The notes under the pieces were generated by a model that saw only the letters and a list, made by a program, of their open reading frames with translations, was not told the DNA's origin and did no database searches. From Escherichia virus TH47: a stretch of 64,000 bases of DNA. The translations under genes and the position numbers were made by a program. Every line of letters starts with the position of its first letter. Position 1 is the stretch's first letter. Shown here one piece after another: positions 4,051-37,156 of this stretch. The DNA lies in the sequence record MT446416.1; one strand, given 5' to 3'.

Positions 4051-5580
4051 TTATTTTTGATACTTGCTCATGATATCTTTTTCCCAAGAAGTTACGTTAC
4101 CATTGTCGTAATCCTTGAATGAGTTATCAAGTGTAGTTAGTGCATACTCATATGCTTCTGGTGATTCGATGTCAACATCATCTGCACCATTGACTAAATC
4201 AGACCAAGCCTTTTGAAGTTTACGAGCATTATTACCAACATTATTTTTAATCCAACTAATGTTTCTGTTGATACTTTTACTATCAGCCCCGGCTTTTTTA
4301 CCAATCTCTGATATCCACATCATTAGCTTTTGAAGTTCATGAATTGAGTTATCGTTCATTTCACGATCTTTAGAAAGTTCTGCTTCCATACCATCGGAAC
4401 CAGTACTGTCAGATGAACCAACGTCAATTCCATTTTTAGCTAATAGTTTACCAAGTTCAAAGAATGCAGCTTCAGCAGGGAAGTCATAACCTTTCTCTTT
4501 GTAGTTATTCCATGCACTATCAAACTCGTCAACAAAACGGTTAGCATAATCTGGATTTTTAACTAATGCTTTATATACTGCCATTGCATGTTCAAAACCT
4601 TCTTTATCTGACCCAAACTCTTCCATCTCAGGACGATGAATGTATCCATCCATATCAACGGTATCAGGTAGTTCTTCTTGCTCAGGCTCAACATCTTTCT
4701 GTTCAACTGCACCTTCTTCATCTTTACGTAGTAGATATCCATCAGGTGTCACTTTCTCACCATGTTCTGCTTCATACTTTTTCATGGTATTGAATGCAGC
4801 ATCCATAGCTGTTACGAAGCGACTTTTCTCACCTTGTACATAAGATTTAAGTGCACTATTAACAGCGTCAGATACGAGCTTAACCTTATCGTCTTTACCT
4901 TCTAAACGGTTTTCAAGTTTAGCCAGTACATTCTTGACTTGCTGGGCATTAGCACGGTCTGCTTTACCAATACTATCAAAAGTTTTAAGAATACCATCAA
5001 GACTTGCTTCACCCTGTTCAGGTTCTTTGGAATCTTCTTTGTGTGTACCTTCAAGTGCACGCATGATAGTACTGAATACTTCAGTAGGTTCAGTGCTCTT
5101 ATTACCTTTCATTGCATCAAGTACAGCTTGTGCTTTACCTTTGAGTTCTTCTTTAGGAACTGCCTGTAGTGCTTTGACAATACCCTGAATCAACTGTGGT
5201 TTGTTAGCAAATATCTTACCTAAGTTATCAGAAAGTTCTTTGACAGGGTTAGATGCTTTTGATTGTGCAGGTGCTTCTGGTTCTACTTCTGGACGTTCTT
5301 GTGCATTATCCATTGCAGCTAGTTGTTCTTTTTGATGAGCATTAAGTAATCCCAAAGCATTCATGTATTTTAATTTTTCATGTGGATTCATTTTGGAAGT
5401 ATCTGTTACTTCACCTGGCTTTGCATTTTCTACACCTTGTGCACCAGTGCTTTGGTTACGACTCATTTTTCTACCACTATGATAGTTTCCAGCAGGGCGG
5501 TACTCCGACTTGCGTTTTGAATGTTGAACAATTGCACCATTTCTGTGCTTCATATCACCATTATTATAATCACTAGGCAT
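4051..5580 (-). CDS. hypothetical protein (509 aa), largely hydrophilic and helical-looking
   Basis: Long ORF; strong SD aaggaggg about 6 nt upstream of ATG at 5580. Confidence 0.65.
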   Translation of the reverse strand: MPSDYNNGDMKHRNGAIVQHSKRKSEYRPAGNYHSGRKMSRNQSTGAQGVENAKPGEVTDTSKMNPHEKLKYMNALGLLNAHQKEQLAAMDNAQERPEVEPEAPAQSKASNPVKELSDNLGKIFANKPQLIQGIVKALQAVPKEELKGKAQAVLDAMKGNKSTEPTEVFSTIMRALEGTHKEDSKEPEQGEASLDGILKTFDSIGKADRANAQQVKNVLAKLENRLEGKDDKVKLVSDAVNSALKSYVQGEKSRFVTAMDAAFNTMKKYEAEHGEKVTPDGYLLRKDEEGAVEQKDVEPEQEELPDTVDMDGYIHRPEMEEFGSDKEGFEHAMAVYKALVKNPDYANRFVDEFDSAWNNYKEKGYDFPAEAAFFELGKLLAKNGIDVGSSDSTGSDGMEAELSKDREMNDNSIHELQKLMMWISEIGKKAGADSKSINRNISWIKNNVGNNARKLQKAWSDLVNGADDVDIESPEAYEYALTTLDNSFKDYDNGNVTSWEKDIMSKYQK

Positions 5581-5623
5581 CGTGTGCCCTCCTTTAACAT
5601 AAAATATATTATTATTTATTATA

Positions 5624-7271: not shown

Positions 7272-7382
7272 TTCACACTCCTTAAAGAGATAAATTACTT
7301 TAATATTTATACTTCATGTGCTGTTTATTTCCACAGACACTTAAGATTATATCACATATGAAATGGTTGTTCCAAAGTCAAA

Positions 7383-24105: not shown

Positions 24106-24329
24106 ACCTCTTTTACAATAATGTCGATTTGCACAGGAATAGCAATCTCACTATTGCATGAATAAACATCTGCACAGTACTCAATATCTAGTACTTCATA
24201 GTATTTTTCAAAGCCACAGATTGTAAGATTCAACGTAGCACCAATAGCTGGCAATACGGGAAAGGATAAAAATGCAATTTTAGAATTAAATTCTTCATTA
24301 ATATCTTGATATACAGTGGCAGTAATCAT
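24102..24329 (-). CDS. hypothetical protein (75 aa)
   Basis: ORF in gene series. Confidence 0.45.
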   Translation of the reverse strand: MITATVYQDINEEFNSKIAFLSFPVLPAIGATLNLTICGFEKYYEVLDIEYCADVYSCNSEIAIPVQIDIIVKEV

Positions 24330-24910
24330 AATGGTAACTCCTGAAGTGGTTTAATAATACTCAGTACTGGGTGATTTTCAATCATCGGTCGCCCTGGTAC
24401 ACCTGTTAGCACAACTGGAATCGAACTAATGTCTTTTACATAGTTGAATCCCTCAAATGTGAATTCTTGCTTTTTCTCATTATACAATACCCACAGAATA
24501 ACGTCAGCTTTTTTCTGTATATTTTTTAACTGTCGAGTACTAACACATGGTCCAAAGTCTGTCCACGATTTGTACTTGATACCTTTCACTTCAATTCTTA
24601 AGTTGTTTACTTTGATATCACATTCACCATCACGACCATCACTTTGGAACGCTGGATCAATGTTAAGTGCAATACCTGAATAGTTTTCAATTTCATTAAA
24701 AAGTACAAATGATGCATGTTCACATACCATCCCTACAAAATGACTGTGAGCGTGATTAAATCCATACGGCGATTTACTTGCAGGTGCAAGAATCTTATAT
24801 CGTTCAGATTTCTCAATTGCTTTAGCCATAAAAGAATCAGCTTCATCTTTGTATAGCTTAACAGTCATTTTGCCATTTTTCAGTACTAAACGTTTTTCTA
24901 CAACACTCAT
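24326..24910 (-). CDS. hypothetical protein (194 aa)
   Basis: ORF in gene series. Confidence 0.55.
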   Translation of the reverse strand: MSVVEKRLVLKNGKMTVKLYKDEADSFMAKAIEKSERYKILAPASKSPYGFNHAHSHFVGMVCEHASFVLFNEIENYSGIALNIDPAFQSDGRDGECDIKVNNLRIEVKGIKYKSWTDFGPCVSTRQLKNIQKKADVILWVLYNEKKQEFTFEGFNYVKDISSIPVVLTGVPGRPMIENHPVLSIIKPLQELPL

Positions 24911-24974
24911 AAAATCCCCTTATTGATATTCCATTTAAGTATACGTCAAAAACACAACTCAGTCAAGGTGCTTT

Positions 24975-25004
24975 TTTACCTATCCAGAATAAATACGTTA
25001 TAAT
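24975..25004 (+). promoter_or_regulatory. putative plus-strand promoter (TTTACC-N18-TATAAT)
   Basis: tataat at 24999-25004 with a weak -35; ggaggg SD at 25017-25022 before ATG 25027. Confidence 0.35.
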
Positions 25005-25026
25005 AATTATACCAATGGAGGGATGA

Positions 25027-26184
25027 ATGTCAAGATCGATTGCTGCTGCTGGACGATATAAGTTCGGTGAATGTGGATATGTAGTCGATGGTGCAATTCT
25101 CAACGATGGGACTAAACTCAAAAATGTTCGAATCTATCGTCATAGAAGCCATAGATTATATGATTTACTTGATCCTGTAAGTAATGTAATTTATCGTAAA
25201 GTACAAATTACAACAAAGGATATACAAGGATATCAATTAAACTACAACAAAACTAATGATCAAATCCTAAGTGAAATAAGAAAGAACTCTTTTTTCGTAA
25301 GAGGATACTCAGATGCTAAACTTGAATCAGATCCTACTGGGTTTGTTTATAAGTTTCTTTTGCACAAAACAATTCTAGGTAGTTCACAAACACTATATAA
25401 TATGTACACCCCTGAATGCGGGATTATAGATAGAGATATAGACAACATCCTTATGTTCCCAACGTTCGTAGGTGATGATTTGGTAGGTGGTCGCCTATTC
25501 AACGCAGGTTCAGCCATTGATACAACTGGAATGCGTATTACCGTTATACTTCCTGACGGAACCGAGTACTTCACAACTGAAATAATTGATGATGTTTTTA
25601 GTATTCCAGTTGATCCAATTACTCAATCCGGTAAAGGAACCATCATACTCACTTCTGACATATATAATACCAAAACTATTGAATTTGATATACTAGAAAG
25701 CGGCGAAGATATTGACTTCGTTACTTCAGTACTTCTATCTCAGTTTGAGTACACGTCCGATGGTATGTACATGGCAACTGTACCAGCTACTGTGCATGAG
25801 CGTGGTGAGTATCTTGCTCTACAAGCATACAGTGGTGATTTATTCCAAATTGGAGTAGACCTCATTGTAGATCCTAGCGGTAATATTACTGTGTACCAAA
25901 CTGATGATGCTCCAATCTCATTGAGTATTATTGGTAAAACCTTACACACCACTCCATATCACAACACGTATACTGATAGTGATTGGGTAGTTGATGGTGA
26001 TTCTATGTACACACTGTCCATTCCTGCCAGTGAACATGGTAAAATCCTCCCACAAGTTCAAGTCTATGCTGAAGACAATCACGTTGTACTAAGTGAAGTT
26101 GAACTAGATGCCGATGATAATGTTGTATTAAAAGTTGTTGAACCATTTGGCTGTACTGTAGTCATTGTTGGTTATAACGCATAA
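25027..26184 (+). CDS. hypothetical protein (385 aa), the only long plus-strand gene; beta-rich, possibly structural or surface-binding
   Basis: Long ORF with strong SD ggaggg; followed by a bidirectional hairpin terminator; rich in T/V/D/G/Y. Confidence 0.6.
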   Translation: MSRSIAAAGRYKFGECGYVVDGAILNDGTKLKNVRIYRHRSHRLYDLLDPVSNVIYRKVQITTKDIQGYQLNYNKTNDQILSEIRKNSFFVRGYSDAKLESDPTGFVYKFLLHKTILGSSQTLYNMYTPECGIIDRDIDNILMFPTFVGDDLVGGRLFNAGSAIDTTGMRITVILPDGTEYFTTEIIDDVFSIPVDPITQSGKGTIILTSDIYNTKTIEFDILESGEDIDFVTSVLLSQFEYTSDGMYMATVPATVHERGEYLALQAYSGDLFQIGVDLIVDPSGNITVYQTDDAPISLSIIGKTLHTTPYHNTYTDSDWVVDGDSMYTLSIPASEHGKILPQVQVYAEDNHVVLSEVELDADDNVVLKVVEPFGCTVVIVGYNA

Positions 26185-26220
26185 CAAAAAAGCCACTACA
26201 ATGTAGTGGCTTTTCTTTTA
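26185..26220. terminator. bidirectional rho-independent terminator between convergent genes
   Basis: aaaaaagccactacaatgtagtggcttttctttt hairpin flanked by A-run and T-run. Confidence 0.6.
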
Positions 26221-26228
26221 TCTATATC

Positions 26229-27053
26229 TTATTTGAAGTTTTTACGTAGAACTTCTTCCAGTGTTTGTTCTGGATTAGCAATTGCAACAGTGTAAATCAA
26301 ATCTTTGAATGCCTGTACTGCTTGCTCAGTTGCTTCTTTACCGAAGTTAGCTGAAATACTGCTAAACATATTTTCAGCACGTTCAGAACTAATTAGTTCA
26401 TTAACAAAGGTATCAATCTCTTTTTTGAGTTGTCCAGTTGTCATGTCACCAATTAGCATTTCATCAACTTCTGGCTTTTCATCAGTACTAACACGTACAT
26501 TTGTAAAGCCAAATACATCATCCAGTGAACCAAAACTATGTTTAACTTTAGAAACAATAGATGGCTTGGTGCGTTCTACTGGTTCTACTGGTTCTTCTTG
26601 TTTCTCTTCAGAATCAGTACTTGATTCGTATGGCTTGGTGAACATATGAGTGAGAACGTCATCAATGTTTTTAATCATACCTTCAACACGTTCTTCAGTT
26701 TTCTTAGTAACTTCTTTGAATGCTTGCTCAAGTAGACGATCTTGAACTGTAGTACGTACATCACCAACAACACCACGTAATTTTTCATTACACTGGTCTA
26801 GAATTGATAATAGTTCACCACTTTTAATTTTGTCAACCAATAAATCAAGGTCAGATTTAACTTCAGGTTTCTTCTCAATACCATTTAGTAAGCTGTTAAG
26901 CTCTTGAGCACCCTCAATCGCTTCTTGATGACTGGTAAATTGAACAGGCACATCAACACCATCTAGAACGATATTGAGTACTTTACCATCTACATAAGCG
27001 TAAGAGTAATATTCTTTTTTGAAGGAAATGGTTTTGAAGAAAATGTTGCTCAT
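26229..27053 (-). CDS. hypothetical protein (274 aa)
   Basis: Long ORF, acidic and helical-looking. Confidence 0.55.
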   Translation of the reverse strand: MSNIFFKTISFKKEYYSYAYVDGKVLNIVLDGVDVPVQFTSHQEAIEGAQELNSLLNGIEKKPEVKSDLDLLVDKIKSGELLSILDQCNEKLRGVVGDVRTTVQDRLLEQAFKEVTKKTEERVEGMIKNIDDVLTHMFTKPYESSTDSEEKQEEPVEPVERTKPSIVSKVKHSFGSLDDVFGFTNVRVSTDEKPEVDEMLIGDMTTGQLKKEIDTFVNELISSERAENMFSSISANFGKEATEQAVQAFKDLIYTVAIANPEQTLEEVLRKNFK

Positions 27054-31960: not shown

Positions 31961-32076
31961 ATATTATGGAGTATTTATATGTAAGAAAAATATCATTTTT
32001 GAGGTCAATATCAGAATTGCACTGATTATTCAGACTTACAAGGTCCGTGTTATACTCTTTTAACTAATCGACCTGA

Positions 32077-33154: not shown

Positions 33155-33340
33155 CTATGAAATGAATGTAGCGTTAATTCCCATTATAAATGCAAATATA
33201 CCAAACAATATCAGACCGATTGGTACAAAGATCATAGATCTATTTCCATGTTTCGATAAAAATCGTTCAAGTATAATTAAACGTATTGATATAGGAACCA
33301 TTATAATAATATACAATATTGAAAGAATTAAAAGTTGCAT
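33155..33340 (-). CDS. small membrane protein (61 aa)
   Basis: Two hydrophobic segments. Confidence 0.45.
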   Translation of the reverse strand: MQLLILSILYIIIMVPISIRLIILERFLSKHGNRSMIFVPIGLILFGIFAFIMGINATFIS

Positions 33341-33366
33341 TTTAATTTCCTATTATCATTTCGTTT

Positions 33367-33439
33367 TGCGACTCTGGAGGAACTCGAATCCCCAACCAAT
33401 TAATTAACAGTTAATCGCACCACCAATTGTGCTACAGAG
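33367..33439 (-). tRNA. tRNA-Asn (anticodon GTT)
   Basis: Manual cloverleaf: acceptor GACTCTG/CAGAGTC, D-stem GCAC/GTGC, anticodon stem ATTAA/TTAAT with loop CTGTTAA, T-arm GGGGA-TTCGAGT-TCCTC, discriminator G. Confidence 0.7.
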
Positions 33440-33449
33440 TCATAATTAT

Positions 33450-34507: not shown

Positions 34508-34721
<214 letters not shown>

Positions 34722-37004: not shown

Positions 37005-37024
37005 ATCCTTAATATTATATTTTA

Positions 37025-37096
37025 TAAAGGGCCGGAGAATCGAACTCCGATTGGATTCTTAGAAGGAATCTGTTTTATCCATTAAACTAGCCCCTC
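37025..37096 (-). tRNA. tRNA-Arg (anticodon TCT)
   Basis: Manual fold: D-stem GTTT/AAAC, anticodon stem GATTC/GAATC with loop CTTCTAA, T-arm CGGAG-TTCGATT-CTCCG; acceptor GAGGGGC/GCCCTTT needs two G-U pairs including 1:72. Confidence 0.5.
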
Positions 37097-37156
37097 AGTA
37101 CTAATAATTATATCACATCTTTGTGGTCTGTCCCAGAAATTGTGATATAAAAGTTG

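Follow-up and report, generated by a model that had tools for sequence, protein, structure and literature searches.

The 64,000-nucleotide (nt) stretch of Escherichia virus TH47 analysed here (sequence record MT446416.1; the whole stretch is called the window) carries a single convincing plus-strand gene, at positions 25027..26184. We consider it probable that this gene encodes a late-expressed structural protein exposed on the virion surface of a jumbo coliphage of the RaK2/121Q type. That the gene is annotated, and that its product is a virion protein of a known phage group supported by mass spectrometry (MS), is already known. The present analysis adds two features to this: a conserved unit of predicted late promoter, gene and bidirectional terminator that is set between putative early operons, and a probable N-terminal anchor module found throughout a protein family, which has neither a Pfam family nor a solved structural relative. 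The gene and the parts of its product, given in amino acids (aa), are as follows.

25027..26184, plus strand: coding sequence (CDS) of 385 aa with an ATG start; 42.8 kDa, acidic, isoelectric point 4.5; predicted virion structural protein.
25027..25431, plus strand: N-terminal domain (N-domain), aa 1-135 (~120-135 aa), with an SH3/Tudor-like β-barrel core; proposed virion anchor.
25432..25704, plus strand: immunoglobulin (Ig)-like domain 1, aa ~136-226, from the AlphaFold2 model.
25705..25944, plus strand: Ig-like domain 2, aa ~227-306, from the AlphaFold2 model.
25945..26181, plus strand: Ig-like domain 3, aa ~307-385, from the AlphaFold2 model; distal and least conserved (36.7% mean pairwise identity).

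The orthologues of the 385-aa protein are named 121Q gp155, phAPEC6 gp077, fEgEco12 g507, GAP32_475 and CBB_496, and two of them have been recovered from virions by electrospray ionization tandem mass spectrometry (ESI-MS/MS). In the virion proteome of phAPEC6, gp077 (42.88 kDa) is represented by 10 unique peptides with 37.8% coverage (PMC7247149), and CBB_496 is represented by 4 peptides with 17.5% coverage in that of CBB (PMC5259590). All of the virion MS data used here come from these published proteomes of orthologues in phAPEC6 and CBB, not from TH47 itself. Identity over the full length of the protein is 99% with the orthologue of fEgEco12, 75.6% with 121Q, 75.3% with phAPEC6, 40.6% with GAP32 and 39.8% with CBB. 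The databases label fEgEco12 g507 as 'structural protein' and 121Q gp155 as 'virion structural protein; Ig-domain'. Similarly, residues 1-384 align with positions 1-384 of the 384-position profile of PHROG 10468, 'virion structural protein; Ig domain' (E = 1.7e-156), and the only PHROG families matched by the protein, 10468 and 33171, are both described as 'virion structural protein'.

The preliminary description of this DNA, made from the letters of the window, had called the protein rich in Thr, Val, Asp, Gly and Tyr and probably β-structured, and both statements hold. Asp makes up 9.4% of the residues, Ile, which is also abundant, 9.1%, Val 8.8%, Thr 8.6%, Gly 7.5% and Tyr 6.0%. The AlphaFold2 model is all-β, with the N-domain followed by three β-sandwich Ig-like domains and a mean predicted local distance difference test (pLDDT) score of 83.5. 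Ig-like domains 2 and 3 show a weak similarity to each other (25% identity, E = 4e-4), and their sequences suggest an origin by internal duplication. The mean pairwise identity among orthologues decreases along the chain from 57% in the N-domain to 43% in Ig-like domain 1, 40% in domain 2 and 37% in domain 3, which is the pattern expected of a proximal anchor and a distal exposed tip. The protein has no Pfam match, even at an E value of 1; one orthologue carries a precomputed PF13620 assignment. The Pfam profiles of Big_1, Big_2 and Invasin_D3 are likewise unmatched, and the likeness of the domains to these families is structural only. A sequence search of the PDB gave no match better than E = 0.1 with the whole protein and nothing meaningful with the N-domain profile. 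The 385-aa sequence contains no transmembrane or other hydrophobic segment and no signal-like N-terminus (maximum Kyte-Doolittle value 1.46), and tblastn found no paralogue of the gene elsewhere in the 64-kb window.

The N-domain is the part of the protein with the widest distribution. Its profile, searched against 1.84 billion representative proteins, gave 194 matches, in most of which residues 1-120 of a protein of 124-1859 aa correspond to profile positions 1-121. In ten larger proteins that we scanned, the remainder of the chain consists of Ig-like arrays of the Big_2, Big_1, Invasin_D3, HYDIN or Fn3 type, apart from one without a Pfam match. The cultured phages that have the domain all belong to the RaK2-like group, and in IMG/VR it is restricted to jumbo-sized contigs or fragments thereof. 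Its consensus reads M-G-K-P-I-A-G ... K-Q-R-S ... F-D-L-I-D. The paralogue gp347 of phAPEC6 consists of the N-domain only (125 aa, 32% identity, E = 9e-16), and with 8 peptides and 75.2% coverage it shows the highest coverage of that virion proteome (PMC7247149). CBB_112, an N-domain with one Big_2 domain, was also detected by virion MS (PMC5259590). Because an N-domain-only paralogue is itself a well-covered virion protein, the N-domain is sufficient for virion incorporation and is probably the anchor by which the longer proteins are held, and we infer that it provides the docking surface itself. Two cysteines, Cys16 (25072-25074) and Cys131 (25417-25419), are invariant in 14/14 orthologues, an invariance that does not extend to the wider N-domain family. 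In the AlphaFold2 model both residues fall in low-confidence segments flanking the N-domain, and they could be joined by a disulfide or take part in an intersubunit link.

The genes of the paralogues share some features with the plus-strand gene. 121Q gp471, CBB_112 and RaK2 gp496 are single opposite-strand genes amid metabolic genes, and the paralogue genes are mostly preceded by ATAAATA-like motifs, the motif being weak in RaK2. In uncultivated jumbo phages of 355-370 kb from IMG/VR, N-domain paralogues of ~306-640 aa stand in tandem, 2-4 together, as islands on the opposite strand, and most of these genes have a hairpin of their own and a (G/A)TAAATA-like motif upstream. Directly upstream of 121Q gp471 lies gp472 (43 aa, MGEPIAGQDQFPF...), a truncated remnant of a second N-domain gene, which is evidence for tandem duplication and decay within the family. 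The RefSeq label 'major tail protein' on the RaK2 paralogue and on CBB_112 appears to be an artefact of Big_2 matches to tail-protein families.

Full-length orthologues of the 385-aa protein are present in 61 phage records (tblastn), all of them RaK2-like jumbo phages, and the gene lies at the same locus in every one examined. The records cover the whole RaK2-like group save Alcyoneusvirus, and the hosts are Escherichia, Salmonella, Cronobacter (GAP32_475), Pectobacterium (CBB_496), Serratia, Erwinia, Yersinia (fHe-Yen9-04 g482c), Klebsiella aerogenes and Xanthomonas. At the nucleotide level the region is 98-99% identical to the jumbo coliphages BF17, fEgEco12, EC.P1, WPEC3/5 and Ecwhy_1, and 78% identical to 121Q, PBECO4 and phAPEC6 of the genus Asteriusvirus. 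The inverted orientation and both flanking genes are kept in 121Q, fEgEco12, phAPEC6, A4, 7t3, CBB, GAP32, fHe-Yen9-04 and XaC1. The arrangement, a leftward 194-aa gene, the rightward gene for the Ig-like protein and a leftward virion-protein gene, is shared by Asteriusvirus, Mimasvirus, Eneladusvirus and related jumbo phages of Salmonella and Xanthomonas; in Mimasvirus and Eneladusvirus an additional methyltransferase gene is inserted at the locus. A 99%-identical protein is also deposited under 'Escherichia coli' on a 358-kb contig, which is therefore a jumbo-phage genome of the same type assembled in a bacterial isolate record, via contamination or a carrier state.

The strand layout of the window agrees with the earlier view of a lone plus-strand gene. 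In fEgEco12, the annotated relative that is closest (98.8% identical), ~50 kb of the window correspond to 125 annotated CDS, of which 124 share one strand and g507 alone has the opposite one. All other plus-strand ORFs (open reading frames) of at least 80 aa in the window are nested in longer minus-strand ORFs, with the sole exception of an 81-aa ORF at 33162..33407 that overlaps the tRNA-Asn gene. This tRNA gene is one of four phage tRNA genes on the minus strand of the early region: Thr-TGT (32001-32073), Asn-GTT (33368-33441), Ser-GCT (34632-34721) and Arg-TCT (37024-37097). The signals and genes that surround the plus-strand gene are listed below.

24326..24910, minus strand: divergent upstream neighbour, 194 aa, PHROG 16175; first gene of the next leftward early unit.
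24938..24966, minus strand: second sigma-70-like promoter of the leftward unit, TTGACT-17-TATACT, 10/12, intergenic.
24988..24996, plus strand: T4-late-like promoter motif AATAAATAC, with an ATAAATA core that begins 38 nt 5' of the ATG.
25006..25033, minus strand: perfect extended -10 sigma-70 promoter, TTGACA-16-TGgTATAAT, 12/12; overlaps the 5' untranslated region and the start codon of the plus-strand gene.
25017..25022, plus strand: Shine-Dalgarno sequence GGAGGG, 4 nt 5' of the ATG.
26188..26214, both strands: bidirectional intrinsic terminator hairpin with a GC-rich 12-bp stem, an A-run 5' and a T-run 3', giving U-tracts on both strands.
26229..27053, minus strand: convergent neighbour, 274 aa, PHROG 14991 (E = 3e-75); last gene of the upstream leftward unit.

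The predicted late promoter is recognized by its conservation. The motif AATAAATAC is invariant in five aligned upstream regions from three genera (the window, 121Q, CBB, GAP32 and fHe-Yen9-04), while the remaining intergenic sequence has diverged, and (A/G)TAAATA lies 31-42 nt 5' of the ATG in 9/9 orthologues examined. ATAAATA is the published putative late promoter before the structural genes of CBB and GAP32, where it was compared with the T4 late promoter TATAAATA, and both phages encode a gp55-like sigma factor (PMC5259590). The ribosome-binding site GGAGGG, already pointed out in the preliminary description, stands where it was placed; its GGAG core is retained in most orthologues (GGGAG or GGAGG in CBB, GAP32 and Yen9-04), and A4 and 7t3 have only G-rich variants (GAGGGG, AGGGGG). 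That description also mentioned a candidate promoter, and the gene does have a promoter motif of its own, which is late-like. A sigma-70-like plus-strand site, 24975..25004 (10/12), was rejected as the promoter of the gene, as such matches occur at chance frequency in this AT-rich DNA (14 against an expected 14.8) and other genera do not conserve the -35 box of the site. Late-type motifs, ATAAATA or TATAAATA, also occur 20-45 nt 5' of minus-strand start codons at 5613-5619, 7304-7310 and 31972-31978, and one of these motifs precedes the minus-strand gene 4051..5580, which approximately corresponds to fEgEco12 g555, 'virion structural protein'. The sequence thus suggests that the 'early' strand, too, contains a few late genes.

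The minus strand has a different set of promoters. All 37 sigma-70 matches of at least 11/12 in the window, 11 of them perfect (12/12), are on the minus strand, and the plus strand has none; in Markov-1 simulations about 2.9 are expected per strand. Examples of minus-strand sites are found at 907, 12252, 16211, 16860, 25033, 32389, 37501, 37641, 42791, 44651 and 59792. By these counts the minus strand looks like a densely promoted early region read by the host RNA polymerase (RNAP), and in CBB the region CBB_390-546, which includes CBB_496, has been proposed as an early region rich in RpoD-like promoters (PMC5259590). The -35 box of the promoter 25033->25006 is the reverse complement of the start region of the plus-strand gene (ATGTCAA); thus, the predicted early leftward and late rightward promoters overlap physically, and occlusion or competition between them is possible. 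As regards the second leftward promoter (24938..24966), a minus-strand TTGAC(A/T) box is also present in the equivalent intergenic region of CBB, GAP32 and Yen9-04 in the alignment. At the other end of the gene, the bidirectional terminator that the preliminary description had assigned jointly to this gene and to the convergent one is plausible. The hairpin folds with -16.2 kcal/mol on the plus strand (z = -8.3) and -20 kcal/mol on the minus strand (z = -5.9), and a strong hairpin with flanking A- and T-runs directly follows the stop codon in 9/9 orthologues, with unrelated stems of -16 to -19 kcal/mol.

From these elements, we propose the following course of events. The minus-strand early region would be driven by many host sigma-70 promoters, and the plus-strand gene lies between the terminator 26188-26214 of one early unit and the promoter 25033->25006 of the next. 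This gap would shield the gene from early read-through and antisense collision, so that it has the appearance of a late gene kept apart from the early units on either side. The gene would be silent early and would be transcribed late through AATAAATAC by host RNAP redirected by the gp55-like late sigma factor, with the hairpin 26188-26214 stopping both convergent transcripts. The protein would then enter virions, as its orthologues do by MS, probably held by the conserved N-domain. Finally, the three tandem Ig-like domains may project outward as a short flexible fibre, which could serve in weak adhesion to host or environmental glycans, or could decorate the virion as Hoc does on T4 and pb10 on T5.

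The two flanking genes differ in their conservation. The product of 24326..24910 is labelled 'putative endonuclease' in fEgEco12, PHROG 16175 itself being without an assigned function; it is 92% identical to 121Q gp156 and 64% identical to GAP32_476 (E = 1e-95), and its position is the same in all genera examined. The product of 26229..27053 diverges very fast, with 65% identity to 121Q and 23% to GAP32_473 (E = 4e-14). Its orthologues are 121Q gp154, phAPEC6 gp078c, GAP32_473 and CBB_494, and its other family matches are weak and spurious (CheZ, ZorA). It also belongs to the virion proteins, since phAPEC6 gp078c was detected with 4 peptides and 21.4% coverage (PMC7247149) and CBB_494 with 1 peptide (PMC5259590).

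The preliminary description had proposed a separately acquired cassette, possibly surface-related or involved in superinfection exclusion. An autonomous opposite-strand unit with a promoter motif, a ribosome-binding site and a terminator does resemble a moron-like element that carries an exclusion protein or another accessory surface protein, but this origin is hardly credible. The GC content (z = +0.95), the GC content at third codon positions (z = -0.35) and the synonymous-codon log-likelihood (z = -1.16) of the gene are all typical of 85 minus-strand ORFs, and the local GC profile across it is flat. The gene occupies the same site in the same orientation in at least four genera or lineages, between conserved flanks. 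Its 75.6% identity to the 121Q orthologue is nothing unusual beside 22 neighbouring genes, for which the values span 42-94%. Only 3-5 of 23 local genes can still be recognized in GAP32 and fHe-Yen9-04, and the gene is one of these, which places it among the locally best-conserved genes, and a dN/dS of 0.07-0.13 against 121Q indicates purifying selection. The preliminary description had itself named, as speaking against a cassette, a codon usage and a phylogenetic distribution identical to those of the flanking genes together with homology to a core phage protein, and by this standard of its own the cassette fails. Because composition and codon usage are typical and the gene, its orientation and its flanks are conserved across genera, we reject the cassette reading, which is refuted by distribution and composition as read from the sequences. 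Superinfection exclusion is also without support: the protein has no transmembrane segment, there is no PADLOC or NCBIfam match, and the orthologues are in virions. The surface-related part of the proposal fares better, as the protein is very likely exposed, with three Ig-like domains resembling bacterial adhesin repeats. By the genome comparisons, 25027..26184 is an old, vertically conserved gene of RaK2/121Q-type jumbo coliphages and no acquired cassette, and its own promoter and terminator appear to reflect late timing within an early region, not mobility.

With a late virion protein as the preferred explanation, two further alternatives concern where the protein resides. One places it on the tail and not on the capsid, either among the 'hairs' of tail, collar or whiskers or as an accessory fibre of the sheath for host adhesion, with the N-domain docking on rings of the sheath or collar; only the location sets this apart from the explanation we prefer, and we regard it as rather unlikely. 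phAPEC6, 121Q and CBB bear hair-like fibres at three sheath rings and the collar for which the gene is unassigned, the RaK2 gp496 paralogue has been suggested to act in phage-host interaction, and the annotators of fHe-Yen9-04 labelled the orthologue 'possible surface protein responsible for cell interaction'. However, the 'major tail protein' labels of the paralogues stem only from Big_2 Ig-like matches, the orthologue is present in both GAP32 and CBB and so cannot alone account for the CBB-specific whiskers (PMC5259590), and an array of three Ig domains, ~12 nm long, falls short of the long hairs that electron microscopy shows. It is very improbable that the protein is instead internal, packaged, assembly-associated or a contaminant that merely co-purifies with virions. 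Jumbo-phage virion proteomes do hold many non-structural proteins, such as topoisomerase, the single-stranded DNA-binding protein and thymidylate synthase in phAPEC6; but the orthologue was seen independently, with good coverage, in two phages of different genera, tandem Ig-like arrays of phage proteins are characteristically external, the distal domains are the fastest-diverging, and paralogues with the same N-domain and 1 to >10 Ig repeats fit an internal role poorly. Several points nevertheless weigh against a late, surface-exposed structural protein. As a 9-mer, AATAAATAC shows no enrichment in the window (1 occurrence against an expected 2.2), its significance lying in positional conservation alone; a transcriptome of any phage of the clade was not found in the literature, and late timing is read from motif conservation and virion association alone. 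MS on CsCl-purified virions is compatible with a co-purifying or internal protein, and the PHROG category 'head and packaging' is an annotation only. The virion-protein gene 26229..27053 sits on the 'early' strand, so strand separates structural from non-structural genes imperfectly.

For the late surface protein that we prefer, cryo-electron microscopy offers possible sites. The densities of phAPEC6 and 121Q without an assigned gene include a flexible, Hoc-like fibre at each hexamer centre, an elongated network protein on the capsid surface, and hair-like fibres on the collar and sheath. By analogy with known decoration proteins, the product of 25027..26184 is a good candidate for one of these, either the hexamer-centre fibre or the tail and collar hairs; a hexamer-centre site is possible, though we would not count on it. 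A wider proposal is equally tentative. The N-domain may be an undescribed docking module specific to RaK2/121Q-type jumbo phages, a plug-in adaptor by which one class of site can display different Ig-like arrays, of 0 to >10 domains, in exchange for one another. The product of 25027..26184 would then be the hexamer-centre fibre on the 270 hexamers of the T=28 capsid of 121Q and phAPEC6, and the paralogues would compete for the sites or share them.

The locus carries a caution for genome scans of T4-like and jumbo phages, because a gene that stands alone on the opposite strand, with a promoter and a terminator to itself, mimics a mobile cassette and is here an ancestral, probably late structural gene between early units. 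Our results further connect a gene family with those decoration and fibre densities of the 121Q/phAPEC6 virion that have no gene assigned. The candidate N-domain anchor might serve phage display on jumbo capsids, as Hoc does on T4 and pb10 on T5. In addition, Ig-like surface proteins bear on adherence to mucus and hosts, which is relevant to phages under consideration for therapy against avian pathogenic E. coli (APEC) and O157 E. coli.

Finally, we compared the gene and its product with known systems. The promoter resembles that of T4 late units (TATAAATA, read by gp55-RNAP), since AATAAATAC matches 7/8 positions, lies ~30-40 nt from the ATG and precedes structural genes. It differs in that the clade consensus is (A/G)TAAATA and CBB is without detected gp33 or gp45 homologues (PMC5259590). 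The paralogues, which are phAPEC6 gp347 and 121Q gp471 with the N-domain only, CBB_112, the GAP32 'Ig domain-containing protein' and RaK2 gp496 with the N-domain and Big_2, and metagenomic proteins of 300-1859 aa, have a homologous N-domain, and gp347 and CBB_112 are likewise virion proteins by MS. However, they differ in the number and type of their C-terminal Ig-like arrays (none, Big_2, Invasin_D3 or HYDIN-like), and the Cys16/Cys131 pair is invariant only in the orthologue subfamily of 25027..26184. The orthologues 121Q gp155, phAPEC6 gp077, fEgEco12 g507, GAP32_475 and CBB_496 differ from the TH47 protein in nothing material. Two other candidates were set aside as comparisons: the phiKp24 capsid, which is of a different lineage (T=27, no decoration proteins), and the 'Hoc-like' protein of PMBT63, a true T4-type Hoc unrelated to the present family. 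T4 Hoc, the product of a late gene, is a non-essential surface decoration protein of ~40 kDa in which three Ig-like domains stand in tandem and one non-Ig C-terminal domain binds the capsid. The product of 25027..26184 is similar in size (~43 kDa) and likewise has three tandem Ig-like domains and one non-Ig domain. In contrast to Hoc, it carries the non-Ig domain at its N-terminus (aa 1-135) and its chain stops inside Ig-like domain 3, and the two proteins are without sequence homology (no Pfam match at E = 1, matches only to PHROG 10468 and 33171, and no PDB match below E = 0.1). T5 pb10 consists of an N-terminal capsid-binding domain and an Ig-like domain. Although the N-domain of the 25027..26184 product is not homologous to that of pb10, both proteins place a non-Ig domain at the N-terminus ahead of the Ig-like part, with an anchor role predicted for the domain in the jumbo-phage protein. 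A decoration or fibre protein of the Hoc/pb10 kind is thus proposed for TH47 by analogy only.

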